Shown here: positions 2 to 42,225 of the stretch, in pieces
Layout of the letters: the number at the start of each line of letters is the position of its first letter
Numbering within the stretch: position 1 is the stretch's first letter
DNA from: Candidatus Zixiibacteriota bacterium
GTDB taxonomy: Bacteria > Zixibacteria > MSB-5A5 > WJJR01 > JAJRUJ01
Assembly (NCBI GenBank): GCA_020051695.1
Contig: JAGVQM010000019.1
Location: 15,221 to 79,220 of the forward strand
Direction: 5' to 3'
DNA: 64,000 bases
Notes under the pieces: generated by a model
The model's input: the letters and a program-made list of their open reading frames with translations, nothing else
Database searches by the model: none
What the model was told of the DNA's origin: nothing
Program-made: the position numbers and the translations under genes

Positions 2-820
2 GAGTTTTCAGCGATCAAGGAATTTGATGATTATACCTACGTGCACTCGACCAATGTCTGCATTTATTCGATCACACTTGGTTTGCGGCTGGGGCTGGAC
101 CGGAGCCGATTGTCGCAGCTCGGCTTTGCCGCGTTGTTTCACGATATCGGCAAGACCAGGTTATCCCCCGAATTGATTGGCAAGGCCGGGGCATATGACG
201 ATGCGGACTGGCGGGAAATCCGGAAACATCCCGCGCTGGGCGCCCTGACCCTGGCGATGATGCCGGCGACCGATGCCCACAATTCTCGCGCAGTGCTGGT
301 CGCCTATGAGCATCATTTGAATCTGGACGGCACCGGTTATCCGCCGTTGCCCACGCCCCGTGAACTCGATTTGTTCTCGCGGATCGTGGCCCTCACCGAT
401 TCCTACGACGCGATGACCTCGGGACGGGTATATATGAAAACCCGGCTGTCTCCGGATGAAGCGGTGCACCGGCTGCTGCGTCAGAGCGGCTTACGGTATG
501 ATGCGGTGCTGTTGCAGGCGACAATCCATGCGCTCGGAGTTTTCCCGGCCGGGACGTTCGTGCGGTTGAATACCGGCGAATATGGCATTGTGCGGCGCAA
601 TAACCCCCTTGATATTTTCTGCCCGGAGGTTATCGTTTTCCATGTGCAAGAGCACGGCGTGATCATCGACCGGACGATCCAGCTTAGTGCGCGCGATGCG
701 GAGACCGGCGGGTATCGGGCATATATTGCCGAAATTGTCGATCCGGAGACTTTGGGCCTGACCACTAGGGAAGCGCTGGGCATCGAATGGACGGAAACTG
801 CCTCTGCGGCGATCGAGTAA
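2..820 (+). CDS. HD-GYP domain phosphohydrolase (5'-truncated at window edge)
   Basis: Open frame with no stop back to nt 2. Contains HDIGK metal-binding motif and 'LDGTGYPPL' GYP motif, typical of HD-GYP c-di-GMP phosphodiesterase domains. Confidence 0.6.
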   Translation, partial: EFSAIKEFDDYTYVHSTNVCIYSITLGLRLGLDRSRLSQLGFAALFHDIGKTRLSPELIGKAGAYDDADWREIRKHPALGALTLAMMPATDAHNSRAVLVAYEHHLNLDGTGYPPLPTPRELDLFSRIVALTDSYDAMTSGRVYMKTRLSPDEAVHRLLRQSGLRYDAVLLQATIHALGVFPAGTFVRLNTGEYGIVRRNNPLDIFCPEVIVFHVQEHGVIIDRTIQLSARDAETGGYRAYIAEIVDPETLGLTTREALGIEWTETASAAIE

Positions 821-927: not shown

Positions 928-2199
928 GTGAGTTTCCCGGTCATTGCCTCACTGGTCGCCGTCATGATCCTCTGCAGCGCAAGCAGCGGACGGGCCGAAC
1001 GGATTCTGATTCCGATGGACGTCCGGCAGACCGATCATTTGAAGGCCTATGGGGTGGCCTATTGGGCCCTCGAGCAGGGAATGAATGTTGAATGGTTGCT
1101 CAACTTCGAGGGCGGGTCGTTTCTCTGCCCGGCCGTGTCGGACCTGGCGGATACCTGTATCGTGCGTGGTGTCCTGTTTACCCGGATTTCCGAGCCGGAG
1201 GCCGAGCAGGTGTATACCCGGGTCGAGCAGGAAAACATGGAAGTTGTCCTCCTGGAGAAGGCGCCGTCTATTGCCATTTATACTCCCCCCAACAAACAGC
1301 CGTGGGATGACGCGGTCACCCTGGCCCTGACCTACGCGCAAATCGCGTATACGACGCTCTGGGACGAGGAAGTCCTGGGTGGCGAGCTGAGCCGGTACGA
1401 CTGGGTGCATCTCCATCACGAGGATTTTACGGGGCAGTACGGCAAGTTTTACGCGTCGTACCGGGGGGCGTTATGGTACAAGCAGGAACAAGCCGTCAGC
1501 GAGGCGATGGCCCACCAACTGGGCTACCATAAGGTTTCCGAAGAGAAAAAGGCCGTGGCCCGGGCGATTAAAGATTATGTCACCGGCGGCGGTTTTTTGT
1601 TTGCCATGTGCTCGGCGACGGAGACTCTGGATATAACACTCGCTGCCGAGAATGTGGATATTGTGCCCTCGGAATTCGACGGTGATGCATATGATCCGGA
1701 CTGCCAGGAGCGCCTTGATTATAGTAAAACCATGGCATTTAATGGCTTCTCTGTTTCCCTCGACCCATTTGCCTACACTCATGGAGACATCGACACCACG
1801 CCGGACCGGAAAACGAACCGGTATGGCCCTAAAGGGGATTATTTTACCCTCTTTGACTTTTCCGCCAAACTGGACCCGGTCCCGACGATGCTGGTGCAAT
1901 GCCATGTCCCGGTGATCAACGGCTTCATGGGTCAGACTACTGCTTTTCGCAAGTCGCTGCTAAAAAAACATATCATTATCCTGGCTGAAAACGAAGGGCA
2001 ACAGGAAGTGCGATACCTCCATAGCAATTTTGGGCAGGGCACTTTCACCTTCCTGGGAGGGCATGACCCGGAGGATTACCAGCATTTTCTTTATGACCCG
2101 CCTACCGAATTGGCGTTGCACAAAAGCTCTCCGGGGTACCGCTTGATCCTCAACAACATATTATTCCCTGCGGCGCGAAAAAAAGAACGCAAAACATGA
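928..2199 (+). CDS. secreted protein with class-I glutamine amidotransferase-like (ThuA/DJ-1-like) fold
   Basis: N-terminal signal peptide (MSFPVIASLVAVMILCSASSG). 'GGGFLFAMCSATE' resembles the nucleophile-elbow region of ThuA/DJ-1-type domains. Assignment is tentative. Confidence 0.4.
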   Translation: MSFPVIASLVAVMILCSASSGRAERILIPMDVRQTDHLKAYGVAYWALEQGMNVEWLLNFEGGSFLCPAVSDLADTCIVRGVLFTRISEPEAEQVYTRVEQENMEVVLLEKAPSIAIYTPPNKQPWDDAVTLALTYAQIAYTTLWDEEVLGGELSRYDWVHLHHEDFTGQYGKFYASYRGALWYKQEQAVSEAMAHQLGYHKVSEEKKAVARAIKDYVTGGGFLFAMCSATETLDITLAAENVDIVPSEFDGDAYDPDCQERLDYSKTMAFNGFSVSLDPFAYTHGDIDTTPDRKTNRYGPKGDYFTLFDFSAKLDPVPTMLVQCHVPVINGFMGQTTAFRKSLLKKHIIILAENEGQQEVRYLHSNFGQGTFTFLGGHDPEDYQHFLYDPPTELALHKSSPGYRLILNNILFPAARKKERKT

Positions 2200-2545
2200 T
2201 GTAAACCACTCGTTAATCGTCGTCTTTCGCGGTAATACGCGAATTTGTACCGACCCGAATTTTATTTCGACGGAGACACTTTCGGTTTCGATTCGTGGCA
2301 AAAAAAGGCCATTTATCGGATAAAAAAGTTAATATTTGCTTGCGCAATGGGGGGCGATTTGTAGATTGGTGGTGCGCGTTGCTGTGAGTTGAAGAAAAAC
2401 ATCGTCGTCCGGTTTGACTTGCGCCGGGTGATGGACAATCTCCGAGTGAGACCATAGTTCGATATATGTCGGGAAAAAGTGGGGCAGGCCGGGGCTTTGC
2501 GGTGGAGTGAAGACTTTCGGTGGCAAGAGAAAGGGATGAACTACA

Positions 2546-3244
2546 GTGAAAAATTTGACAATCATCGTCGACAATAATCAGCGGGATTCGGCGGTCCCCA
2601 AGTACATCGAAAGCAAATCCGTGACCATTGAATATGCCAATTTGCGCACCGGGAGTTATTTGATCACCGATAACATGGCCATCGATCGTTTGACCAGCAC
2701 GCAATTTGTCGAGCTTACCTCGCAGAGGGCGTTATTCCGCCGGCTGCTTGATTTCAAGAAAACGTATGAAGAGCCGGTCCTGCTGGTCGAGGGCAATAGT
2801 CTGGCCAAGAATAAAAAAGTCTCCGGCGGCGCCCTGCGCGGGGCGATCTCCTATATCTGCTGTTTGAACCGCATTCCGATTATTTTTACCGCGGATGAAG
2901 TTGAGACCGCCGAGATGCTGTTCATTATCGCCAATCAAACACAGTTCGGCCTGGGCTATGAAGTCTCGGCCCCCGAACCGGAGACCCCGGCGGCGAGTGA
3001 AGGGCAACCGGTAAAGCCAAAGACTCCCGAGGATATCCAGTCGTATATCGTGCAGGCGCTGCCGGATGTCGGTCCGGCGCTGGCAACATCGATTATGACG
3101 ATGTACGGCAATTTGCGCACACTATTTTCCGCCACGGTCGGCGACCTGACCAAAGTCGAGGGCATCGGGCCGAAAAAGGCCAAGAAAATCATCGAGGTCT
3201 TCGATCTTGATTTCGCCGAGGAGAAAAAAGGCAAGAAAAAGTAA
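2546..3244 (+). CDS. ERCC4 (XPF/Mus81/Hef)-like nuclease-fold protein with C-terminal (HhH)2 domain; catalytic motif degenerate
   Basis: 'IIVDNNQRD...LRTGSYLITDNMAIDRLTSTQF' aligns with the ERCC4 signature (VDxRE...GDY...ERKxxxD) but with D->S and ERK->DRL substitutions. C-terminal 'LPDVGPALATSIMT...VEGIGPKKAKKII' is a tandem helix-hairpin-helix. Lys-rich tail. Confidence 0.55.
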   Translation: MKNLTIIVDNNQRDSAVPKYIESKSVTIEYANLRTGSYLITDNMAIDRLTSTQFVELTSQRALFRRLLDFKKTYEEPVLLVEGNSLAKNKKVSGGALRGAISYICCLNRIPIIFTADEVETAEMLFIIANQTQFGLGYEVSAPEPETPAASEGQPVKPKTPEDIQSYIVQALPDVGPALATSIMTMYGNLRTLFSATVGDLTKVEGIGPKKAKKIIEVFDLDFAEEKKGKKK

Positions 3245-3270
3245 CAGCTCTGCCTGCACGCCGCTCTGCT

Positions 3271-3296
3271 GCCCGCCTTCGTGCGGGCTTTTTTTT
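3271..3296 (+). terminator. rho-independent terminator downstream of the ERCC4-like gene
   Basis: GCCCGC-cttcgt-GCGGGC hairpin followed directly by TTTTTTTT. Confidence 0.55.
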
Positions 3297-3387
3297 GCAT
3301 GCGCACAGGGCATATGGGGCATCGCTGAATAATGCCGGTGGCGGTCGGGAAAAACCCGGCGGGATGATGGTGATAAAATCAGGCCGA

Positions 3388-4029
3388 TCAGCTGAACAAT
3401 TTGAGCAGCCAATCGTCGATGAGGAACTGCACGCGCTCGATCAGCAGCGAAATACGCGCCATCACGGTATAGCCGAACGACGCGCCGAAGCCGATCATCA
3501 ATGTCCAGATGCCGACTTTGGCGATGCCGCCGGTGGCGCCTTTGTGTTCCTTGGAGAAAAAGAAATAGACCAACGACGTGATGATGCCGATCACCACCAC
3601 GACCGTGTTGATACCCGCCCAAAAGTCGGTTTGCGAATTATGGAGAGCGACAAACGACTGCACGGTGCCGAAGATTTGTTCGAGGACTTTGGTCTGCATC
3701 TCCAGCGGGATCGCGACGCCGGTAGCGATGCCCAGATAGAACGCCAGCGGGTACCGGGAAATCCAGGCCCAGCGTTTGACGATCCGGGTCCACATCAGGA
3801 CCCCGAGGAACGCCGGGATAAGATACCACCATTTCCCGGCCAGCAGTTTCTGCCAGATGTTGGGGATAGCCACGTTGACGTACAGGATAGAAACCCAGTA
3901 CCCTGCCGAAACGCCGACGACCAGATGTTCGGTAAATTTATAGAACGGATTGTCCTTGTACAAAAACGAAAAAATGCACAGGGTCAGCACCGCGGCGACG
4001 GTTGTGGCTATGGCAGTGGCGAAATCCAT
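3388..4029 (-). CDS. cassette protein D (copy 1): polytopic membrane protein of unknown function
   Basis: Paralogue of 34920-35684 and 38640-39383. Shared motifs FLYKDNPFYKF and FFSKEHKGAxGGxAKxGIWTLMxxFGASFGYTVMARISLLI. Several hydrophobic helices. Confidence 0.7.
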   Translation of the reverse strand: MDFATAIATTVAAVLTLCIFSFLYKDNPFYKFTEHLVVGVSAGYWVSILYVNVAIPNIWQKLLAGKWWYLIPAFLGVLMWTRIVKRWAWISRYPLAFYLGIATGVAIPLEMQTKVLEQIFGTVQSFVALHNSQTDFWAGINTVVVVIGIITSLVYFFFSKEHKGATGGIAKVGIWTLMIGFGASFGYTVMARISLLIERVQFLIDDWLLKLFS

Positions 4030-4032
4030 CGT

Positions 4033-4902
4033 TTATAACCCAACCCTGTTCTTTTTGCGGGTGGCAAAATACCCGATGTTACCGACGATAATAAAAATAA
4101 TAATAATTGAGTGCGCGACCACCTGCACGCTCATGCCTTCCACGGCCTTCCCCGGCGTGCCGACCAGCGTTTCATATTCTGCGGCGCCCTGTAATCCACC
4201 GAGGATTCCGAAAATCTGACCGGTCTGCAGATAGGGGTAATAGTCGGTGGCCATGACCCCGGTGACCCCGATGGCCAGCGGAACCTGATACCGGCCGTTG
4301 CCGTATGTAATCCACCAGTCGGTCGCGGAGGTCCCCGAAATGTTGATCACGGCTTTGATATTCTGGTAATTGCGGATACCCTTCATCATCGGCAGCGAAT
4401 CCAGCGGCACATTGTAATAATCGTTGGGGAAGGGGATCCGGTAGTTTTGTCCCATGCCCAGGATAATCAATATCGGGTATGGCTTGTAGCCCAGGAACAC
4501 CCAGTCTTTACCGCTTTCGGGGCGGTAGCCGGTCAGTTCAAAATGCCGCTGGCAGGCCGTGTCGATGGCTTCAGCAGCCATCCCCGGCCCGTTTTGATGC
4601 AAGGCGGTGATAATGACTTTGATCTTCTTTTCAAAACATTGTTTCAGGACGGCCCGCGTCATCGGGTGCAGCTCCGCAAGCGTGGAGGGATCGTAATCCA
4701 TCGCCAGATGGATATAATCGCCGTCACTGAGACTGTTCATATAATCGTAAATGCTGCGCGCTTCCTTGGAAATCGGGATCGGAATCACCGGCTTGGCAAT
4801 GACCGAGAGGACCACTGCCAGCATCAAAAATCCATAGACCCACCGCCGGTCGATGGCGAACATGCGTTCGAAAATGTTTTTTCGCGAATTCTGCTCAGTC
4901 AT
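4033..4902 (-). CDS. cassette protein C (copy 1): bitopic membrane protein with large periplasmic domain
   Basis: N-terminal TM (WVYGFLMLAVVLSVIA) and C-terminal TM (VVAHSIIIIFIIVGNIGYF). Paralogue of 35688-36548 and 39380-40237 (DYDPSTLAELxPM, GxxGAAEYE motifs). 3-nt gap to D. Confidence 0.7.
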   Translation of the reverse strand: MTEQNSRKNIFERMFAIDRRWVYGFLMLAVVLSVIAKPVIPIPISKEARSIYDYMNSLSDGDYIHLAMDYDPSTLAELHPMTRAVLKQCFEKKIKVIITALHQNGPGMAAEAIDTACQRHFELTGYRPESGKDWVFLGYKPYPILIILGMGQNYRIPFPNDYYNVPLDSLPMMKGIRNYQNIKAVINISGTSATDWWITYGNGRYQVPLAIGVTGVMATDYYPYLQTGQIFGILGGLQGAAEYETLVGTPGKAVEGMSVQVVAHSIIIIFIIVGNIGYFATRKKNRVGL

Positions 4903-4920
4903 GTTCCACCCGAGTTCAGA

Positions 4921-5547
4921 TCAATCCTTGCCCAGATATGATCGTTCAATACCCAGGACCACTTTCATCGCCGTCGAGACGATCCCCAGCCCGACCCCGA
5001 TCAAAATCGCCCGTTTGGCCGCCAGGTTGGGGACATTCAAAATCCAGTCCGAGGTTTTGCCGACCACCGAGGTCAGCGGCCCCAGCGGGAAAAACCGCAT
5101 CATGACGATGATGGCGGCGACCAGCAAAATACTGGCTAAAACCGAGCGGGCACGAAATGCCCGATAAGCGGCCGAGGCAATGAAAAAGGCCAGCAACGAA
5201 AACATCGTCGCCGAGATCGGGATCATGATGTTGTTGAAACTCCAGTCGAACGCCGTCGATAGCGGGGGATAATGATGGCCGATAACGCCGAACGCACTCA
5301 TGACAAACAAGCCGATGAGGGTGACGATGGAGTAACGCCAGGCCTCCGTTTTCCGCCTGATTCTGGTGATGCTCACGCGGGTCAGCGAAATGACGCCGAG
5401 CATCAGCGCAAACACGCCGATAATCGGCGGCCAGTCCAGGGCAATGAATTCGTAGAAAAACTCAGACTTTTCGTGGGGTACGAAATACTGCACGACCATA
5501 AACAGCCCGCAGGAAAAGATAATGATCAGTGGAAACTGCCGTTTCAT
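4921..5547 (-). CDS. cassette protein B (copy 1): polytopic membrane protein
   Basis: Paralogue of 36553-37341 and 40255-40917. Shared motifs ATMFSLLAFFIASAAYRAFRAR and NVPNLAAKRAILIGVGLGIVSTAMKVVLGIERSYLG. Confidence 0.7.
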   Translation of the reverse strand: MKRQFPLIIIFSCGLFMVVQYFVPHEKSEFFYEFIALDWPPIIGVFALMLGVISLTRVSITRIRRKTEAWRYSIVTLIGLFVMSAFGVIGHHYPPLSTAFDWSFNNIMIPISATMFSLLAFFIASAAYRAFRARSVLASILLVAAIIVMMRFFPLGPLTSVVGKTSDWILNVPNLAAKRAILIGVGLGIVSTAMKVVLGIERSYLGKD

Positions 5548-5556
5548 ATCCGTACC

Positions 5557-6906
5557 CTAAATATTCAATGCAAAATAATCCGTGAGCCAGCCCAGATTTA
5601 AAATCCCGGCAATCACTCCGATGACCATGGCCACCAACAGGAGCGCCTTGGCATAATCCTGGGCCTTTAACGTCCCCAACAGAATCGGTTCCCGTCCCAG
5701 GTAGGCCGATGCCGCGTATAATTCCTCACCGATGAGCGTATAGTCGCACGCCACAACGAAAAACGGAAGTTGGGTCACCCGGTCGGTCCCGGAAATCTGG
5801 ATCGACCCGGCCAGCGAACCGGTTTCCGCCAGGATCAGCGATTCGGCGTAGAACACACCCAGGTAGAAATTCGTCGCTGTCTGCCGCCGCAACATGACAC
5901 CGTTGACTGCGGCGACATAGGCAAACTGGTTTTGGGTGACAAAATAGACCATATCTTCGTTATAATCATCCACGCGGCCGGCGTCGATGTAGGCCTGTTT
6001 GACCGTTTCCTGCGCAATGGTCATCACAATCGAATCATAACAGGGGACGATAAGTTCGGTCTGGTACTCGGCGACTTTTTTGGCGACGCGGGAAAGAATG
6101 GTAAACGAGGCAATGGTGGCGATTTCATCGGGCGCCCCCAAACCGAGCACATACAAGATCGGCCGCCCCATTTCGGTCGCGCGGCCGATGGCCTCATCGA
6201 CGGCGTTGATCCCCGCCAACGGCCGGATATACAGTTCCCTGCCGCCCCTGGCCAGTCTGACCATGGTCAGCATCAAGCCCCCGAAGATCAGCACGGCCAG
6301 GACGACCCATGTTTTCCCCGTATGATACCACTGCCCGGATGATTCGACCGGGCCGAAGATTGCGGATTCAGAGACGGCGCCGCCGGTACCGACAGACAGT
6401 ATTTTAAACGAGAATCCGACATCGTCGGGAGAATAATCGTTGCCTTCGCGGGCCTTGCCGCCGCGATTAAAATATTCTGCAGTACCCGCGGGGATACTCG
6501 CAATTGTATCCCATACGCCCTCAACGAGATGCCACCAGGTGCCCTGTTCGTTACGCCATTGGGGCCCGTCGCCCTGTGGTTCGGTCAACGGACCCGCCCA
6601 GCCCGGCGTACGCAGGATCCTATATTGCAGGACATTGTTCCGGCCGCCCAGATCATCGGCGGAGATGTTCCAGGTCAGATGGAAGGCATGGCCATGGTCG
6701 TTGGGGAGGTCCACCACTTGAAGATTGCTGATCGGCGCGGGGGGAGGTTCGACAATAATGGTCGTGGAATCGACAATCAGCGTATCAGAATGGGGTTCGT
6801 CAACTTGCGCTGCTGCTGAAAGGGATAAAACACAACAAATAAAAACGGTTGCGGCTATGCAAATCCAACAATGGGTTGTCCTCACCCCAGCGGCCTCACC
6901 AATCAT
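5557..6906 (-). CDS. cassette protein A (copy 1): signal peptide - Fn3-like ectodomain - TM - conserved cytoplasmic domain
   Basis: Paralogue of 37350-38615 and 40951-42225. Invariant block GRATEMGRPILY...AESLILAETG...QLPFFVVACDYTLIGEELYAASAYL. Ectodomain has the Fn3-like pattern LTWxxxADD...YRILR. Confidence 0.7.
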   Translation of the reverse strand: MIGEAAGVRTTHCWICIAATVFICCVLSLSAAAQVDEPHSDTLIVDSTTIIVEPPPAPISNLQVVDLPNDHGHAFHLTWNISADDLGGRNNVLQYRILRTPGWAGPLTEPQGDGPQWRNEQGTWWHLVEGVWDTIASIPAGTAEYFNRGGKAREGNDYSPDDVGFSFKILSVGTGGAVSESAIFGPVESSGQWYHTGKTWVVLAVLIFGGLMLTMVRLARGGRELYIRPLAGINAVDEAIGRATEMGRPILYVLGLGAPDEIATIASFTILSRVAKKVAEYQTELIVPCYDSIVMTIAQETVKQAYIDAGRVDDYNEDMVYFVTQNQFAYVAAVNGVMLRRQTATNFYLGVFYAESLILAETGSLAGSIQISGTDRVTQLPFFVVACDYTLIGEELYAASAYLGREPILLGTLKAQDYAKALLLVAMVIGVIAGILNLGWLTDYFALNI

Positions 6907-34919: not shown

Positions 34920-35684
34920 CTAGTTAATAAAGCCCAGCCAGTCGCCGAACAGGAAGCGCATGCGGCCGACCAACAGGGAAATACGCGCCATCACCGTGTA
35001 GCCGAAACCCGCGCCGAAAGTGACCATCAGCAGGTAAATGCCCACGCGCGAGGCGGCGCCGAATGCGCCCTTGTGTTCTTTGGAGAAAAAGAAATACACG
35101 ATCCCGCAAAAGACGCCAAGGAACACCACGACTGCTGACAGCGAATCCGTCGTCAGGAAACCGCCGTCCGGCCCGAACACGGCCAGCGGGTTGATCGTGT
35201 TATAAATCTGCCCGATAAAATCCGAACGCAGGTAGCGGACAAAATTCAATCCGGCAGTGGTCCCGACAATAAACGCCAGCGACCAGCGGGAAATCCAACC
35301 AAGCTTCGAAGACAACCGCAGCAATAAAATAATGCCCAAAATCAGCGGCAGGAGATACCAGTAATTCGGTTCGGCATCGGCCACCGAGGGTAAAAATGGC
35401 CGTACCGCCGGCGGATGCAGCCGCCCGATCAGGTTGGGGACCAGTGTCGTCCAAAACCCCATCGACATCCAGTACGCCGCCGAGACCCCAACAAACAAAT
35501 GCTCGGCAAATTTATAGAACGGGTTGTCTTTATACAAAAAGCTCAGGATACATAAAGTCAGGAACGCGCCGAACGTGATATAAAACCCTTCAAACGCCCG
35601 GGCATCGCGCGCCATGATCGAGATGACGAACGCAATGATCAGCACGATAAATCCGATCAGATAGATGATAGCCCTGCGTTGCAT
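34920..35684 (-). CDS. cassette protein D (copy 2)
   Basis: FLYKDNPFYKF and FFFSKEHKGAFGAASRVGIYLLMVTFGAGFGYTVMARISLLVGR motifs. Paralogue of 3388-4029. Confidence 0.7.
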   Translation of the reverse strand: MQRRAIIYLIGFIVLIIAFVISIMARDARAFEGFYITFGAFLTLCILSFLYKDNPFYKFAEHLFVGVSAAYWMSMGFWTTLVPNLIGRLHPPAVRPFLPSVADAEPNYWYLLPLILGIILLLRLSSKLGWISRWSLAFIVGTTAGLNFVRYLRSDFIGQIYNTINPLAVFGPDGGFLTTDSLSAVVVFLGVFCGIVYFFFSKEHKGAFGAASRVGIYLLMVTFGAGFGYTVMARISLLVGRMRFLFGDWLGFIN

Positions 35685-35687
35685 CGC

Positions 35688-36548
35688 CTATTTCGCCCGC
35701 GCTTTCCGTTTCCGGTCGATGAAAAAGGTCGCGTTGCCGATAATGATGAACAGCATGATCACGATATGCGCCACCGCCTGCGGCCCCATCATCTCCAGCC
35801 CGCCGTGCGGCATTTGCTCAAAATCGGGATATTTCCGGATCATTTCCGATTCGTATTCGGCTGCGCCCTTGATCCCCCCCATCATGCCCAGCATCTGGTT
35901 GGGATAATACGGATACAACTGCGGCGCCGAGACCGCGGTCACCCCGCCGGCCACCGGTATGTTGCCGGGGTCGCCGGCAAAAAGGATCCACTCTTTCAAA
36001 CCGGGAAAGCCGCCGCCGAAGGCCGCGATTAAGTCCATGTTTTTCAAACTGCGGACATCCCGCATCATCGGAATGCTGTCAATCTGCGTGCCGTTGACAT
36101 CGGTAGTATACATCTTCTTCATGTCGGTAATGATCACGTTGATCAGGCCCTGATTACCCGCCTTGTATCCCAGATGGACATAATCCACACCGCAAACCTT
36201 ATCCGGGAAATGTGTCGTGACGATACGGTCGATCGTCTCATCGGCCAGATTTTGCCCCGTGCCCCACAACGCCATGACATACAATTTCAGATTTCGCCGG
36301 CAACAGTGATACATCACGGCATCAACCATCGGTTGCTGTTCGGGAACAGTGGAGGGATCGAAATCCAGCGAAATCAACACCCGCGAACCCTCAGGCAGGG
36401 TCTCGATTTTATCGAAGATCTTCTGCACAATCGGCGTAATCCGCTCGGGAAAGATGACATTGAACAACAGGGGAATAATTACGGACAAGGCAATAAACAA
36501 AAAGATTATCCGCCGGTCGATGTTCTTGATGGTATCGAAAAAGGCCAT
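35688..36548 (-). CDS. cassette protein C (copy 2)
   Basis: 'IDRRIIFLFIALSVII' N-TM, 'SLDFDPSTVPEQQPM', 'GGIKGAAEYE', C-TM 'AVAHIVIMLFIIIGNATFF'. 3-nt gap to D2. Confidence 0.7.
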   Translation of the reverse strand: MAFFDTIKNIDRRIIFLFIALSVIIPLLFNVIFPERITPIVQKIFDKIETLPEGSRVLISLDFDPSTVPEQQPMVDAVMYHCCRRNLKLYVMALWGTGQNLADETIDRIVTTHFPDKVCGVDYVHLGYKAGNQGLINVIITDMKKMYTTDVNGTQIDSIPMMRDVRSLKNMDLIAAFGGGFPGLKEWILFAGDPGNIPVAGGVTAVSAPQLYPYYPNQMLGMMGGIKGAAEYESEMIRKYPDFEQMPHGGLEMMGPQAVAHIVIMLFIIIGNATFFIDRKRKARAK

Positions 36549-36552
36549 GGCG

Positions 36553-37341
36553 TTAATCCTTGTCCCGTCCGAGATATGTCCGTTCGATGCCCAGGATCAC
36601 CCGCAGCGACATCGAAATTACTCCCAGCGAAATGCCGATAATAATTGCCCGCTGGCCCGCCAGGTTGGGGACCCCCATAATCCAGTTGGTCAGGTTAGGC
36701 ACTTCGAAAAACGACAGCGCATCAGGCAGCCAGAACGTGGCATAGTACCCGGCGGGCGTCCGCCCCAGCAGAATGACAAAGGCAGTGACCAGCAGGACGG
36801 TGGCTTCCTTGTTTTTAGCCCGGAATGCGCGATACGACGCCGAGGCCACAAAAAAGGCCAGCAGCGCGTACATCGTCGCTTTCAGCGGAGTAAAGACATA
36901 CGTGAAAAAGTCCTGAAACACCGAGCCGGTGGCGGTGAGATTCCCCACCCAGCCGCCGGGGTTGCCGATTTTGAACAACCCGGCCCAGAGCATGACGAAA
37001 AATCCGATGAGTGTGACCATCGAGAAAAACCAGTCTTTGCCGCGCCGGTCCTCGATCCCGCCCATCGCATGGAAGGGAAACGCAATGAGCATCTTCAACG
37101 GCCAGAAGCCCCCCTGTTTCCTGCTTTCCGTGAAATAGAACTTCAACCCGCGGAAGAACCGCCCACTGTGGATCCGCACCAGGTTGCCGCCGCCGAGGAA
37201 GAAGGCAAACACGGCGATGATATCAAAATACAGGCTGAAATTTTCACCCAGCCGGCCGAACGGGTCATGCGGAATAAACGCCGCGATGATCAGCACCGCG
37301 CCGACGGTGAACGTGATTAATAATGGTACCTGCCGTTTCAT
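36553..37341 (-). CDS. cassette protein B (copy 2)
   Basis: Start reassigned to MKRQVPLL (ATG 37341) by alignment with B1 and B3. 'ATMYALLAFFVASASYRAFRAK' and 'VPNLAGQRAIIIGISLGVISMSLRVILGIERTYLG'. Confidence 0.7.
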   Translation of the reverse strand: MKRQVPLLITFTVGAVLIIAAFIPHDPFGRLGENFSLYFDIIAVFAFFLGGGNLVRIHSGRFFRGLKFYFTESRKQGGFWPLKMLIAFPFHAMGGIEDRRGKDWFFSMVTLIGFFVMLWAGLFKIGNPGGWVGNLTATGSVFQDFFTYVFTPLKATMYALLAFFVASASYRAFRAKNKEATVLLVTAFVILLGRTPAGYYATFWLPDALSFFEVPNLTNWIMGVPNLAGQRAIIIGISLGVISMSLRVILGIERTYLGRDKD

Positions 37342-37349
37342 GGTTTTGC

Positions 37350-38615
37350 CTATTGATTCAGCCGGAACAGATCGCGCACCCATTCGCCGGCGGTGGTGGC
37401 AATCCCGACATTAAACAATGACCCGATAGTCAGCAGTGTCACGCCGGCCAGGATCGCCAGCATCGCGATCATCTTGCCGACATCCTGCCCCTTCAACGAC
37501 CCCAGCTGGCGCGGTTCGTGCGACAGATAAGCCGAGGCGGCGAACAACTCCTCACCGATCAGCGTATAATCGCAGGCCGCGACAAAAAACGGCAGCTGTG
37601 CGGGCATCGCCGTGCCGGCGATCTGGATCGCCTCGATGGAATGGCCGGTCTCGGCCATAATCAGCGATTCGGCGAAAAACGCGCCGAGATAGAAACAGGT
37701 CGCCGGCCTTTCGCGCACCATGATCCCGTCCACCGCCGCGACATACCCGAACTGTTCGTCGGTGACATACTGCACATAATCATCCGAGTATGCATCGGGG
37801 CGCCCGGCGGCCAGATAGGCCTCTTTAATCGACTCGCGCGCGGTGGTCATCACAATCGAGCGTGAAGTCGGGACAAACAACTTGGAATCATATTCGGCGA
37901 TGGTCTTGGCGATCCGCCCCAAGATCGTAATCCCGGCCACGGTCTGCACGTCGTCCATGTCCTGGATGCCGGGGATAAACAAAATCGGCCGCCCCATTTC
38001 GGTGGCGCGTCCGATCGCCTCGTCGACCGCTTCGAGTCCGGCGATTTTGCGGATAAAGAGTATTTTGCCCCTTTTGGCCGAGGCGATGAAATACCCGATA
38101 AACAACGAGATGATTCCACCGACGACAAACAAATTCAGGATATTGAAATTAAACCACTGCGCGGACGATCGGACCGGACCGATCACCGGCGAAGACGACG
38201 AGCCCCCGGCTGTCTGGGTCTCGATTCTGTAATAGAAATCCGTCCCCGGCACGGTCGAGGCATCAGTGTATCTTTTTTCTCCGGCCGAGGAAAACCCGGT
38301 CTCGCGAAACGGCCCTTCCGGCGATTCGGCGCGCAAAATGCGGTAGCCCGTGACCAGGTTTTCGCCGGGACGGTCATCGGCCGACAGCTCCCAAAAGACA
38401 TTGATCGAATGCCCTTCATCGGAAGGCGTGTCTTCCGCCCCCGCATTGACCGGCGGCGCAGGCCGGCGGACCGCGGCCATCATCCCCGCAACGCCCGTAG
38501 CGGCGGAATCGGCCGGCGCCGAATCGACAACCTGGGCGACCATGCCGGAAGCCGGCAGCAGCATCCCTGCCAGAAGACAGCAAAAAAGAATTTTGTGCAG
38601 CACCTTCATGGTCAC
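37350..38615 (-). CDS. cassette protein A (copy 2)
   Basis: Signal peptide, Fn3-like 'NVFWELSADDRPGENLVTGYRILRA', TM, 'GRATEMGRPILFIPG...AESLIMAETG...QLPFFVAACDYTLIGEELFAASAYL'. Confidence 0.7.
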   Translation of the reverse strand: MTMKVLHKILFCCLLAGMLLPASGMVAQVVDSAPADSAATGVAGMMAAVRRPAPPVNAGAEDTPSDEGHSINVFWELSADDRPGENLVTGYRILRAESPEGPFRETGFSSAGEKRYTDASTVPGTDFYYRIETQTAGGSSSSPVIGPVRSSAQWFNFNILNLFVVGGIISLFIGYFIASAKRGKILFIRKIAGLEAVDEAIGRATEMGRPILFIPGIQDMDDVQTVAGITILGRIAKTIAEYDSKLFVPTSRSIVMTTARESIKEAYLAAGRPDAYSDDYVQYVTDEQFGYVAAVDGIMVRERPATCFYLGAFFAESLIMAETGHSIEAIQIAGTAMPAQLPFFVAACDYTLIGEELFAASAYLSHEPRQLGSLKGQDVGKMIAMLAILAGVTLLTIGSLFNVGIATTAGEWVRDLFRLNQ

Positions 38616-38639: not shown

Positions 38640-39383
38640 CTAGTTAATCAATTGCAACCAATCACTCATGAGATAATCCATGCGGCCGATCAACAGCGAT
38701 AACCGGCTCATGACCGTATACCCGAATGATGCGCCGAACGTGAGCATCAGTGTCCAGATCCCGATTTTGGCCACCCCGCCGAATGCGCCTTTATGTTCCT
38801 TGGAAAAATAAAAATAGATCAGTCCGGAGAGCGTCCCGATGACCAATATTGCCTGAGAAATGGTCGCCCACAAGTCGAGATTCCCGGCGGCATCGTAACG
38901 CTGCAGCGGGCCAGCAGAGGCCCCCAGCTGGAGGATGCCGTTGGAAACAAAGTAATTGATAAAATACAACCCCGCCGTCGCGCCGACCACCACCGCCAGC
39001 GGCCAGCGGGAGATCCACCCCGCTTTGGGAAACAACCGCATCAGCATCAGGACGCCCAGAAGCCCGCCGATCAGCATCATCCACCGGTCATCCCATCCGC
39101 CGCCCTGCACGAACGTCGTGTGATAGGCCGCGCCGACCCCGACGAAGAGCTTGGAATACATATTCTGCCAGAATAATGAGACAAACCAATAGCCGGCGGA
39201 AATTCCCACAAATGCGGCTTCGGAAAACTTGTAATACGGGTTGTCTTTATACAAGAAGGAAAAGATACCGATGGTAAAAAACGCACCCAGGGTCACCGCA
39301 AGGCCCTGGGATGCGGCCAGGATCGCAAAAACGGCGATTCCGACGGCGATAACGATATAGCCGACTACTTTGGTGTTCATCAT
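38640..39383 (-). CDS. cassette protein D (copy 3)
   Basis: FLYKDNPYYKF and YFSKEHKGAFGGVAKIGIWTLMLTFGASFGYTVMSRLSLLIGR. Start ATG overlaps the C3 stop (ATGA). Only 25 nt before the A2 start. Confidence 0.7.
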   Translation of the reverse strand: MMNTKVVGYIVIAVGIAVFAILAASQGLAVTLGAFFTIGIFSFLYKDNPYYKFSEAAFVGISAGYWFVSLFWQNMYSKLFVGVGAAYHTTFVQGGGWDDRWMMLIGGLLGVLMLMRLFPKAGWISRWPLAVVVGATAGLYFINYFVSNGILQLGASAGPLQRYDAAGNLDLWATISQAILVIGTLSGLIYFYFSKEHKGAFGGVAKIGIWTLMLTFGASFGYTVMSRLSLLIGRMDYLMSDWLQLIN

Positions 39384-40237
39384 GTTTGCTTCCGCCGGCC
39401 ACCGGCAAAGTAGGCCACATTACCCACGATGATGAAGAGGATCACGATGATGTGGGCAAATGACTGGGATAACATGAATTTCGTGGCCTTGCCCAGGGTA
39501 CCGGCCAACTCTTCAAATTCCGAAGCGCCCTTGAGGCCGCCCAGAATCCCCCGGAGCTGCCCGCTTTCAAAATAGGGATACGCCAGCGGGGCCTGTACTG
39601 CTGTCGTCCCCCCCAATAATTGTACCCCGAAACGATCAACGCCGAATTGCACCCACTCCACAATACCCGGATATCCGGCGGAGACATTGATCACAAAGTC
39701 GATATTGTTAAAATTCTGCATTCCCTGCATCAGCGGTAACTCGGCGATTGGCGTGCCCCGGAAATCGCGCGGGAATGCCGCGGGAATCGACGAACCCATC
39801 CGCTGGATCACCAATTCATTGCCGGCCTGGAAACCGAGGTTGACCCAGTCGCGGCCATAGGTCAGCGTCTTGCCCTTCCAGATAATCGTTTCTCCGGGCA
39901 CCTCGCCCAGTACGGACTCCAAGGCGGCATTGGCCTGCTGCGGTCCCTGCGGCCACAGTCCCATGATGATCATCTTCAAGTCATGATCGAGGCAATACCG
40001 GATCGCCGTTATCGCCATCGGCTGCAATTCCGGCGCCGAGGGAGGGTCATAATCACAGGGAATGAGCACGCGGGCGCCCGGCTGCAGTCGCGCCAGTTCG
40101 TCAAAACCACGACGCACTTCGTAAGAAATCGTGGTCTTTTGGGAGATATTCAAAAATAACGGCAGGGTGACCGCAACGATGACGAACAGGAAAATAATCC
40201 GCCGGTCGATCTTCATCAATTTGTCCCAAAAACCCAT
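39380..40237 (-). CDS. cassette protein C (copy 3)
   Basis: Start reassigned to MGFWDKLMKIDRRIIFLF (ATG 40237, AGGAA RBS) by alignment with C1 and C2. The ORF-track start at 40426 would overlap B3. Confidence 0.65.
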   Translation of the reverse strand: MGFWDKLMKIDRRIIFLFVIVAVTLPLFLNISQKTTISYEVRRGFDELARLQPGARVLIPCDYDPPSAPELQPMAITAIRYCLDHDLKMIIMGLWPQGPQQANAALESVLGEVPGETIIWKGKTLTYGRDWVNLGFQAGNELVIQRMGSSIPAAFPRDFRGTPIAELPLMQGMQNFNNIDFVINVSAGYPGIVEWVQFGVDRFGVQLLGGTTAVQAPLAYPYFESGQLRGILGGLKGASEFEELAGTLGKATKFMLSQSFAHIIVILFIIVGNVAYFAGGRRKQT

Positions 40238-40254
40238 GCCGTTCCTGCCTGTCA

Positions 40255-40917
40255 TCAATCGCCGCTGACAAATGTCCGTTCGATCCCCAGAATAATCCGC
40301 AATGATGTCGACATGATCCCCAGCGCGATGCCGATCATGATCGCCCGCTGCCCGGCGGTGTTGGGGATGTTCATCACCCAATCGGCCCAGTTGGACAACC
40401 ACAGCCAGTGGGGCAACTGCAACCATTCTTTGGTGATCATATCACCGACCGGCACCCGCCCCAGCATCACAAAAAATGCAGCCAACAGCAGCATCGTCGC
40501 TTCCTTGTTGCGGGCGCGGAAGGCCCGATAGGAAGCCGAGGCCACGAAAAAACCGAGAAGGGCAAACATCGTGGAGGACAGCGGATCATAGACATTATCA
40601 TAAATGAACATGAACCGCGTACCGGGCTCCTGAAAATTCGCTCCTCTGGAGAAAAAGATGCCGACGATAAATATTGCGGCAAAACCGATAATCGTCACCA
40701 GTGAATACATCCAGTCTTTCTTGCGCCGGGCAACCTTGAGCAACGACAATTTCATCAAGTTCAGCGCACCCAGCCAGATGGCAAAGGCCTGAATGATCCC
40801 AAACCAGTCGGAAAACCAGTCGGAAAACCGGGAAACCGGTTCGTGCGGCACGAAATATTGGAAGATGTACATGATCCCCACCACCGCAGTGATGATCAAT
40901 GGAACTTCACGCTTCAT
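40255..40917 (-). CDS. cassette protein B (copy 3)
   Basis: 'STMFALLGFFVASASYRAFRARNKEAT' and 'IPNTAGQRAIMIGIALGIMSTSLRIILGIERTFV'. Confidence 0.7.
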   Translation of the reverse strand: MKREVPLIITAVVGIMYIFQYFVPHEPVSRFSDWFSDWFGIIQAFAIWLGALNLMKLSLLKVARRKKDWMYSLVTIIGFAAIFIVGIFFSRGANFQEPGTRFMFIYDNVYDPLSSTMFALLGFFVASASYRAFRARNKEATMLLLAAFFVMLGRVPVGDMITKEWLQLPHWLWLSNWADWVMNIPNTAGQRAIMIGIALGIMSTSLRIILGIERTFVSGD

Positions 40918-40950
40918 CTTCGCTCAAACCCTTCCCGTCTCCCCACGACG

Positions 40951-42225
40951 CTACACCTGGAACCACCCGGAAATATCCGCAATCTTAAATGTTCCCAGGA
41001 GCAAACCTGCGACAGCCGCGATCAAGATCAGTACTTTGGCCACGTCCTGACCCTTGACGCTGCCCAGTAATTTCGGTTCTTTCGACAGATAGGCCGAGGC
41101 GGCAAAAAGCTCTTCGCCAATTAATGTATAGTCGCAGGCCGCCACAAAAAACGGCAATTGAGAGGCATTCGCGGTGCCCGCGATCTGAATCGCACCGATC
41201 GCATTGCCGGTTTCGGCCATAATTAACGACTCGGCGTAAAACGCGCCCATATAGAAAATCGTCGCCGGTTTCTCGCGGACAAACAAGCCGTCCAGCGCAG
41301 CGGCATAACCGAACTGGTCATCGGTAAGATAACGCACGATGTCTTCGTTGAACGCATCCGGCCGGCCGACGTTCAAATAGGCCTCCTTCACCACCTCGCG
41401 GGAGGTGATCATCACCAGTGAACGCGAAACCGGAACATCCAATTGCGCATCGTACTCCGCGGCCAGTTTGGCGATCCGCCCCAGGATGGTCACCCCAGCC
41501 AGGGTCTGGACATTATCCATATCCTGTGTCCCGGGGATATACACCAGCTTGCGGCCCATTTCGGTGGCGCGCCCGACCGCCTGTTCGACTTCCGCCAGAC
41601 CGGCGATAGGCCGGACGTACAAATCCTTGCCCTTCTTGGCCACATTGATAAACCACAAAATCGAAATTCCGATTACCAGCACCCAGGGCAAAATCCGTGC
41701 GGTGCGAATGATATGAAACCACTGGCCGGAGGCTTTCGCGGCCCCGGAGAGCGGCGAAGCCACGCCGGCAAACAGTTTTTCCCCGGCCGGAGTGAACTTG
41801 CCGGCCAGGGCGGCCACCTTATAGTAATAATTTACCCCGTTGTCGACCTGGCCGTCGGTGAGCGTGGTCATTCCGGCGGTCGCGGAACCAACGGTATCAA
41901 ACGGCCCGTCGGGCGAAGTCGAACGCAAGATAATATACTTGGTGACATTTCTGCGGCCGGCAACATCATCGGCGGACAGTTCCCAACTGATAGTAATCGA
42001 TTTCCCGGCGTCATCAGGGGTATCCTGGGCTTCGACCGAGACAACCGGCGCCGGGGCTTCGAGTTGGGGCGGAGTTTCAGCCACAACGACCGTGGTCGAG
42101 TCGACGGGAGCATCCTGTGCCCAGGCAGGCGATGCCGCGCCACATACAGGAAAGACCAGCAGGAACAGGGAGATGGACAACGCTTTTTTCATCATCAGCA
42201 GTTCCTGCACAAAAAAAATCCCCAC
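40951..42225 (-). CDS. cassette protein A (copy 3)
   Basis: Signal peptide (MMKKALSISLFLLVFPVCGAASPAWA; true start may be M11 or M12), Fn3-like 'ITISWELSADDVAGRRNVTKYIILRS', TM, 'GRATEMGRKLVYIPG...AESLIMAETG...QLPFFVAACDYTLIGEELFAASAYL'. Confidence 0.7.
   Translation of the reverse strand: MGIFFVQELLMMKKALSISLFLLVFPVCGAASPAWAQDAPVDSTTVVVAETPPQLEAPAPVVSVEAQDTPDDAGKSITISWELSADDVAGRRNVTKYIILRSTSPDGPFDTVGSATAGMTTLTDGQVDNGVNYYYKVAALAGKFTPAGEKLFAGVASPLSGAAKASGQWFHIIRTARILPWVLVIGISILWFINVAKKGKDLYVRPIAGLAEVEQAVGRATEMGRKLVYIPGTQDMDNVQTLAGVTILGRIAKLAAEYDAQLDVPVSRSLVMITSREVVKEAYLNVGRPDAFNEDIVRYLTDDQFGYAAALDGLFVREKPATIFYMGAFYAESLIMAETGNAIGAIQIAGTANASQLPFFVAACDYTLIGEELFAASAYLSKEPKLLGSVKGQDVAKVLILIAAVAGLLLGTFKIADISGWFQV

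Follow-up and report, generated by a model that had tools for sequence, protein, structure and literature searches.

What becomes of an XPF-family nuclease once it can no longer cut? Non-catalytic members of this family are considered to have originated in eukaryotes, through duplication and heterodimerization, and we know of no description of the non-cutting state outside eukaryotic relatives such as ERCC1 and FAAP24. The family itself is held to be conserved in eukaryotes and archaea, without direct bacterial orthologs (PMC6320978). Here we take up the question with a short gene from a Candidatus Zixiibacteriota bacterium, located in a 64,000-nucleotide (nt) stretch of contig JAGVQM010000019.1 that we call the window. 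The gene encodes an ERCC4-fold domain followed by a tandem helix-hairpin-helix, or (HhH)2, domain, and a preliminary description made from the sequence had noted substitutions in its nuclease motif. We propose, with a probability of roughly 0.6, that the protein is a domesticated, catalytically inactive short member of the XPF/Hef family, of a Zixibacteria type, and that it serves as a non-cutting DNA-structure-binding or scaffold protein, probably as a dimer.

Family assignment and active-site residues

Does the protein belong to this family at all? The preliminary description left room for a different restriction-endonuclease-like family, an option that the Pfam and PDB matches speak against by placing the protein in ERCC4/XPF. 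Residues 8 to 126 match Pfam ERCC4 (PF02732; E 2e-16, 60.5 bits against a cutoff of 24), and residues 170 to 220 match HHH_5, HHH_2, and HHH, each above its cutoff. The best PDB sequence matches are Aeropyrum XPF (2bgw/2bhn, E 1e-16) and the Pyrococcus Hef nuclease domain (1j22, E 1.5e-16), and further matches include the Hef (HhH)2 domain (1x2i, E 1.5e-8) and human XPF (E 6.5e-8); ERCC1 is matched at E ≤ 1e-3 via the HhH region only. The NCBIfam equivalogs for Hef nuclease and archaeal Xpf match over the full length, at scores far under their trusted cutoffs (148 versus 610 and 89 versus 300, respectively). The restriction-endonuclease-like ERCC4 fold that marks structural membership of the XPF/MUS81 superfamily is present, and the nearest relatives are archaeal and bacterial short XPFs.

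The catalytic signature of the family, GDXnERKX3D together with V-D-x-R-E, is absent. The acidic residues of GDXnERKX3D, the counterpart of the restriction-enzyme motif PDXn(E/D)XK, bind metal (PMC6320978; PMC3905867). In the window protein the corresponding motifs are GSXnDRLX3Q and VDNNQ. The phmmer alignments to Hef, ApeXPF, and human XPF are ungapped over query residues 4 to 83, and they pair D687, R689, E690, D715 (of GDY), E725, R726, K727 (of ERK), and D731 (of X3D) of human XPF with D9, N11, Q12, S37, D47, R48, L49, and Q53, respectively. Because these alignments are ungapped, a register shift is impossible, which disposes of the idea that the catalytic residues sit at shifted positions, and the GSY, DRL, and VDNNQ readings first made from the sequence are all borne out. 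Beyond those three, the X3D aspartate is lost as well. Non-equivalent residues thus occupy four of the seven canonical active-site positions, among them those of the GDY Asp, which binds metal, and of the ERK Lys, and a fifth change (E to D) is conservative.

Precedents from characterized relatives help to interpret these substitutions. FANCM is inactive although its motif reads CDXnERRX3E (PMC3905867), a milder change than in the window protein. FAAP24 has PDXnLYVX3D, and in ERCC1 the triplet LFL replaces ERK (PMC6320978; PMC3905867). Set against these precedents, GSXnDRLX3Q reads as a dead site, and from its sequence the window protein is predicted to be catalytically dead at the former center. 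An ERCC4-like fold lacking catalytic residues and joined to (HhH)2 is what defines the ERCC1, EME1, and FAAP24 subunits, and this combination is found here; the tandem HhH module is preserved, as originally stated, with Pfam HHH matches and hairpins that are invariant in the clade alignment described below. The earlier ERCC1/FAAP24-like label therefore holds for the kind of architecture but not for orthology, as the nearest relatives are short XPFs. Judged from these comparisons, the protein is an independent bacterial pseudo-nuclease derivative of XPF, like ERCC1, EME1, and FAAP24 in kind and not by orthology.

The remaining parts of the protein are also informative. In the linker between the two domains, residues 145 to 155 have predicted local distance difference test (pLDDT) scores below 50. 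Its length varies across the clade, and it exceeds the linker of canonical short XPFs in both length and variability, suggesting a loss of the catalytic coupling between the two domains. In the C-terminal tail, F223 aligns with the anchor phenylalanine F905 of human XPF (6sxa_F), in an alignment that is weak at this end; the anchor residue serves (HhH)2 dimerization in XPF. The lysine-rich C-terminal end is restricted to the close subclade, and tails are not conserved clade-wide. We noticed no clear beta-clamp-binding consensus in the C-terminal tails, for which no dedicated scan was made.

Degenerate homologs, selection, and origin

A single degenerate sequence could be an accident of one genome. 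A close-homolog search of a 5.8-billion-protein collection returned 42 clusters, and the window protein is 100% identical to one public entry (P0001). None of the 30 closest clusters, which span 30 to 100% identity, has the Asp of GDY (S, Q, H, E, N, or T stands in its place) or the Lys of ERK, and in distant members of the clade the ERK triplet has become ILH, WHM, MYL, or KYM. Most close relatives do keep the Glu of VDxRE (VDNSERD). The next-best matches, P0031 to P0042, are canonical.

The same pattern appears at larger scale. At E ≤ 1e-3, 5826 relatives came out of a profile search across 1.84 billion representatives, and we aligned 149 sequences, i.e., the query and 148 of the best 150 representatives. 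The D-E-K combination is present in 132 of the 149, with the degenerate sequences concentrated at the top of the ranking. Canonical sequences hold the expected residue at R11, E12, D37, E47, K49, D53, S57, and Q66 with frequencies of 0.92 to 1.00, versus 0.24 to 0.55 in the clade. The clade has also gained residues of its own (R65 and N108 at 1.00; R109, Q131, G135, and G137 at 0.89 or above), and the hairpin residues G206, G208, K210, and A212 are invariant within it. In a neighbor-joining tree, the smallest group with all 30 close homologs has 38 members, all degenerate and all from Zixibacteria-type metagenome-assembled genomes (MAGs). When the motif columns are left out, 95 of 100 bootstraps place no more than one canonical sequence inside that group; exact-bipartition support for the dead clade is low (20/100), as a few borderline sequences move into and out of it. 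Three short ERCC4-(HhH)2 proteins in the representative library (P0179, P0184, and P0214) keep [AIV]D[FY] and have [IV]RR replacing ERK, a FANCM-like ERR-type site, and they group with the Zixibacteria clade in most bootstraps.

These data bear on the idea that the protein is still a nuclease, working through the retained D9, D47, and E82 or through a rewired site, possibly on another substrate. D9, D47, and R48 persist in the close subclade, most close relatives retain the VDxRE glutamate, and the ERCC4 domain is under strong purifying selection. However, the GDY Asp and ERK Lys are missing in 30 of 30 close homologs, at positions that canonical members hold almost without exception, and the free drift of the ERK triplet is incompatible with a conserved catalytic center. 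As FANCM is inactive despite far milder changes (PMC3905867), we consider continued catalysis improbable.

Is the gene then functional? Against an ortholog that is 93% identical (L044; dS 0.69), the ratio of nonsynonymous to synonymous substitution rates (dN/dS) is 0.059 for the whole gene and 0.056 when the dead nuclease domain is taken by itself. Open reading frames (ORFs) are intact and their length is conserved in more than 35 clusters across 30 to 93% identity. Altogether, the clade, the selection, the new constraints, and the invariant hairpins argue that the gene is functional and selected, though not for catalysis at the old site. A decaying, functionless relic of a horizontally acquired nuclease would account for the lost catalytic residues, for one MAG copy with an in-frame stop, and for faster evolution than in neighboring genes (across loci, 30 to 77% identity versus 62 to 83% for the protein encoded directly upstream, p423). 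The selection analysis effectively refutes it. The intact ORFs, the clade-specific invariant residues, the invariant hairpins, the conserved Shine-Dalgarno sequence and GTG start, and the terminator-like hairpin in the window also speak against it, and we give this explanation almost no weight.

The degenerate form has a narrow host range. In a scan of GTDB species representatives, it occurs in MAGs only, mostly of Candidatus Zixiibacteriota, with a few labeled Ignavibacteria, Acidobacteriota, or just “bacterium”; the canonical matches in that scan are archaeal (DPANN, Methanomethylicota, Nitrososphaerota). Using a profile of canonical bacterial short XPFs, we also recovered a sister group, a tight set of 217- to 218-residue proteins (P0168, P0372, and others) of which one is labeled Zixibacteria. 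P0372-type proteins keep GDF, ERK, S57, and Q66, and have S at D9, H at R11, and A or E at D53. In two loci (L047 and L048), a P0372-type gene occupies the same slot, directly 3' of a p423 ortholog (64% identity) and followed by the nuo operon. The ERCC4 gene linked to p423 therefore spans states from semi-canonical to fully degenerate. This range within one slot points to a gene that entered an early Zixibacterium once and whose active site was then lost step by step.

Where did the inserted gene come from? With tblastn, short ERCC4-(HhH)2 genes turned up on 153 plasmids, of which 134 come from Pseudomonas, with identities of 28 to 32%; NCBI labels these copies “ERCC4 domain-containing protein.” The preliminary description had called the non-catalytic architecture unexpected in a stand-alone bacterial gene. 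Short ERCC4-(HhH)2 genes as such are common on bacterial plasmids, but an inactive bacterial form is absent from the literature that we found. Fully canonical sequences include the plasmid copies of Geoalkalibacter pGSUB1 and Pseudomonas pMPPla107 and the metagenomic P0031, P0175, and P0413 (KSB1). A motif at the end of the ERCC4 domain, H.Q.GLGYE, is common to the window protein and several canonical bacterial relatives; among canonical representatives only 6 of 141 have it, and the archaeal loci lack it altogether. This shared motif, rather than a phylogeny, leads us to infer an old acquisition from a bacterial, partly mobile-element-borne group of short XPFs. The ancestor would probably have been a canonical bacterial short XPF like those on plasmids or KSB1 chromosomes, inserted 3' of p423. 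On the Pseudomonas amygdali megaplasmid pMPPla107 (L046, positions 799424 to 801265), the ERCC4-(HhH)2 module is the C terminus of a 613-residue protein whose N-terminal region is unassigned; canonical modules occur on this and 133 other Pseudomonas plasmids.

Proposed role and the question of a partner

How might a non-cutting short XPF work? The protein would dimerize via its ERCC4 and (HhH)2 domains, as archaeal short XPFs do (PMC6320978), and its GIGPKKAKK/GhG-type hairpins would bind the backbone of duplex or branched DNA without cutting it. As a structure-specific DNA-binding or scaffold module, it could flag forks, flaps, or junctions, shield them, or bring in another enzyme, a mode that we liken to the all-inactive eukaryotic dimers FANCM-FAAP24 and Zip2-Spo16. 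The former active-site groove may be reused as a protein- or single-stranded DNA (ssDNA)-binding surface, as in ERCC1. The alignment of F223 with the XPF anchor Phe, the convergence at the ERK position, and the longer linker would all fit a dimeric, non-cutting protein.

Comparison with known systems brings out both likeness and difference. Among the closest are the archaeal short XPFs (Aeropyrum pernix, 2BGW/2BHN; Sulfolobus) and Pyrococcus Hef (1J22, 1X2I). Archaeal short XPFs have the full GDXnERKX3D, cut 3' flaps and forks as homodimers, and carry a C-terminal PCNA-binding motif (PMC6320978). In contrast, the window protein has GSXnDRLX3Q and a longer disordered linker, and it comes from a bacterium without the archaeal-type PCNA partner. 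Bacterial ERCC4 proteins from plasmids (Geoalkalibacter pGSUB1, WP_052465122; Variovorax and Pseudomonas megaplasmids) and from chromosomes of KSB1 and other MAGs share the short architecture, 28 to 33% identity over 95% of the length, and H.Q.GLGYE. Unlike the window protein, those that we inspected keep D-R-E, GD[YF], ERK, and the X3D Asp, and they lie in mobile or variable contexts with no link to p423. Our literature searches found no experimental characterization of these plasmid and KSB1 proteins, and no paper on a bacterial inactive or pseudo-nuclease ERCC4 or on ERCC4 in Zixibacteria.

Among eukaryotic proteins, ERCC1, EME1/EME2, FAAP24, and the C-terminal pseudo-nuclease of FANCM likewise combine an ERCC4-like fold and (HhH)2 with a degenerate signature. 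In the distant part of the clade, the ERK position converges on x-[YH]-hydrophobic (MYL, KYM, WHM), comparable to L[FY]L in ERCC1 and LYV in FAAP24, whose groove at this place binds peptide or ssDNA (PMC6320978). Zip2-Spo16 and SHOC1-SPO16 form an XPF-ERCC1-like complex without nuclease activity. Zip2-Spo16 differs in that it is a eukaryotic heterodimer confined to meiosis, with an identity of about 10% and a far different cellular context.

The eukaryotic cases raise the possibility that the protein is the non-catalytic half of an ERCC1-like heterodimer, with an active ERCC4 partner encoded elsewhere in the Zixibacteria genome. Eukaryotic inactive family members normally pair with another member (PMC6320978; PMC3905867), the dimerization-competent (HhH)2 domain is kept, and canonical or semi-canonical ERCC4-(HhH)2 proteins do occur in Zixibacteria MAGs (P0372). 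However, archaeal short XPFs act as homodimers (PMC6320978). A search for an ERCC4 paralog, suggested in the preliminary description, found none: a profile hidden Markov model with filters off detected no second ERCC4 ORF in the window, and tblastn with the query plus precomputed Pfam gene calls detected no second copy in the 6- to 8-kb flanks on either side of about 20 orthologous loci. The GD...ERK form of Zixibacteria shares the slot 3' of p423, so the dead and GD...ERK forms are positional orthologs in different lineages and not partner paralogs. We therefore regard a heterodimer of this kind as unlikely.

It is tempting to go further than a non-cutting scaffold. In a more specific version, a mobile-element short XPF turned into a homodimeric junction binder with both subunits inactive, a simpler prokaryotic counterpart of FANCM-FAAP24 or Zip2-Spo16, the steps GD...ERK, DRL, and MYL/ILH are preserved within one slot, and the coupling to p423 is real; we hold this version to be speculative, with the odds against it.

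Several observations weigh against an inactive scaffold. Its dimerization and DNA binding are predicted from homology. D9, D47, and R48 are still present in the subclade to which the query belongs, where a residual or altered metal site is possible. The GD...ERK sister group may still be an active nuclease, in which case the ancestral role of the family would be catalytic. The strict adjacency to p423, which is apparently exported, is left unexplained by a pseudo-nuclease model. Finally, one Candidatus Zixiibacteriota MAG (JAJRUJ010000075.1; L013, positions 6001 to 6696) has an in-frame stop at codon 120 (DET*SAELL) in an otherwise well-conserved frame, which could reflect an error in sequencing or assembly or else pseudogenization in that lineage.

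Gene neighborhood and expression signals

The features of the locus are collected in Table 1. The GTG of the ERCC4-(HhH)2 gene is the earliest start codon available after the upstream stop, and the ORF is intact. Both the GTG start and an equivalent of the purine-rich AAGGGA are kept in five orthologous loci. The terminator-like hairpin is credible because it lies 27 nt past the stop codon; as a pattern it is not significant, with one site in positions 2100 to 3500 versus 1.9 in shuffled sequences. The “clean intrinsic terminator” of the preliminary description is thus present as a hairpin with its T8 tract, but such a pattern is no commoner here than in shuffled sequences. The gene has a GC content of 0.525 and a third-position GC content (GC3) of 0.68, like its neighbors, and a recent horizontal transfer was rejected on this basis.

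Table 1. Features of the ERCC4-(HhH)2 locus in window coordinates
Feature	Position	Strand	Details	Basis
p423, upstream neighbor	928..2199	+	423 residues; N-terminal hydrophobic helix	weak class-I glutamine-amidotransferase/DJ-1-like fold
Conserved intergenic block	2294..2388	+	TGGCAAAAAA ... TTGCGC (2340-2345) ... GTGCGCGTTGCTGTGAG (2372-2388)	alignment of 5 orthologous intergenic regions
Shine-Dalgarno-like AAGGGA	2531..2536	+	purine tract, 10 nt 5' of GTG	
ERCC4-(HhH)2 pseudo-nuclease gene (predicted)	2546..3244	+	232 codons/amino acids; GTG start, TAA stop	ORF list, Pfam
ERCC4-fold domain	2546..2956	+	residues 1-137; degenerate site D9, N11, Q12, S37, D47-R48-L49, Q53	
Disordered linker	2957..3025	+	~residues 138-160; P/E/A-rich, low complexity	pLDDT, clade alignment
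(HhH)2 domain	3026..3205	+	~residues 161-220; hairpins LPDVGPALA and VEGIGPKKAKKI	
C-terminal tail	3206..3241	+	FDLDFAEEKKGKKK	alignment to 6sxa_F, clade alignment
Intrinsic-terminator-like hairpin	3271..3296	+	GCCCGC(cttcgt)GCGGGC + T8; hairpin 3271-3288	pattern scan
DUF6754 cassette copies 1-3	3388-6906, 34920-38615, 38640-42225	-		

The most constant feature of the neighborhood is p423, which matches no Pfam or NCBIfam family. It lies directly 5' of the degenerate ERCC4 gene, co-directional and 220 to 400 nt away, in every degenerate-form locus with enough upstream sequence (L001 to L009, L012 to L014, and L016 to L020), and the adjacency holds across lineages with wholly different downstream genes. 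p423 is also widespread without the ERCC4 gene, e.g., in L041 and L042. In both of these loci, a RarA/MgsA-type replication-associated recombination ATPase gene lies 5' of p423, possibly by coincidence.

The 346-nt intergenic region between p423 and the ERCC4 gene contains a block conserved among close relatives only, within which TTGCGC is invariant in the five aligned regions and TTGCGCAA is palindromic in the window. The block may serve as an operator, as a leader, or as a promoter for a sigma factor other than sigma-70. A sigma-70 scan found no promoter-like site 5' of the ERCC4 gene, and a sigma-54-type reading of the TGGCA...TTGC block was rejected by eye given its spacing of about 40 nt. 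An Rfam scan of positions 1800 to 3600 at a relaxed E-value found no family in the upstream gap, with a lone chance snoRNA-like match (E 0.07).

Could the protein instead be a locus-tied, sequence-directed DNA-binding regulator or nucleoid-associated protein that controls, e.g., p423 or itself through the upstream block? The invariant adjacency across lineages with differing downstream genes, the conserved TTGCGC/GTGCGCG pair in the block, and the lysine-rich tail of the close subclade all lend something to this idea. However, (HhH)2 modules contact the DNA backbone with no preference for sequence, and the protein has no helix-turn-helix or other specificity element. The wide occurrence of p423 without the ERCC4 gene and the conservation of the block among close relatives only also count against a regulator, which we judge to be rather unlikely, slightly more so than a heterodimer with an active partner.

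Downstream, the gene converges with copy 1 of a cassette of four predicted membrane proteins (about 213, 289, 208, and 449 residues), the last with DUF6754 (Pfam E 7.5e-115). The preliminary description had pointed out this cassette on the opposite strand. It is a convergent neighbor in most degenerate-form loci but not a specific partner: it is absent downstream in L009, L014, L016 to L018, and L047, and two more copies lie in the window, about 30 kb from copy 1 and with 32 to 45% identity to it. Given these absences and extra copies, a specific functional tie was rejected, and we treat the cassette as a neighbor by synteny. In L005, L007, L019, and L020, cassette copies are adjacent with a cold-shock-domain gene between them. 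Nothing marks the ERCC4 gene as a defense or mobile-element nuclease: PADLOC defense models matched neither its product nor p423 nor the DUF6754 protein, tblastn against a phage collection found no match for the ERCC4 protein, and the gene has conserved chromosomal synteny and a GC and GC3 like its neighbors. At the start of the window, positions 41 to 820 (+) encode the C-terminal part of an approximately 500-residue HD/HD_5-domain (HD-GYP-like) protein, truncated by the window start; in relatives, this gene is preceded by a HEAT-repeat protein gene.

What does this locus mean for the family? Automatic annotation calls such proteins “Fanconi anemia group M protein,” “ERCC4-type nuclease,” or “hypothetical protein,” and the first two names imply a repair-nuclease activity that the sequence does not support. 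Two points temper the significance: the organisms are uncultured, and loss of catalytic residues in nuclease folds is a familiar evolutionary theme. Still, one syntenic slot preserves intermediate states between nuclease and pseudo-nuclease, and at about 230 residues, possibly as a homodimer, the protein offers a minimal system for the role of the XPF fold once cutting is lost. In the speculative homodimer version, the unbroken linkage to p423 could reflect a functional or regulatory coupling of an undescribed kind. A conserved and selected bacterial clade with an independently lost active site would make the step from nuclease to scaffold a recurrent fate of the XPF fold.
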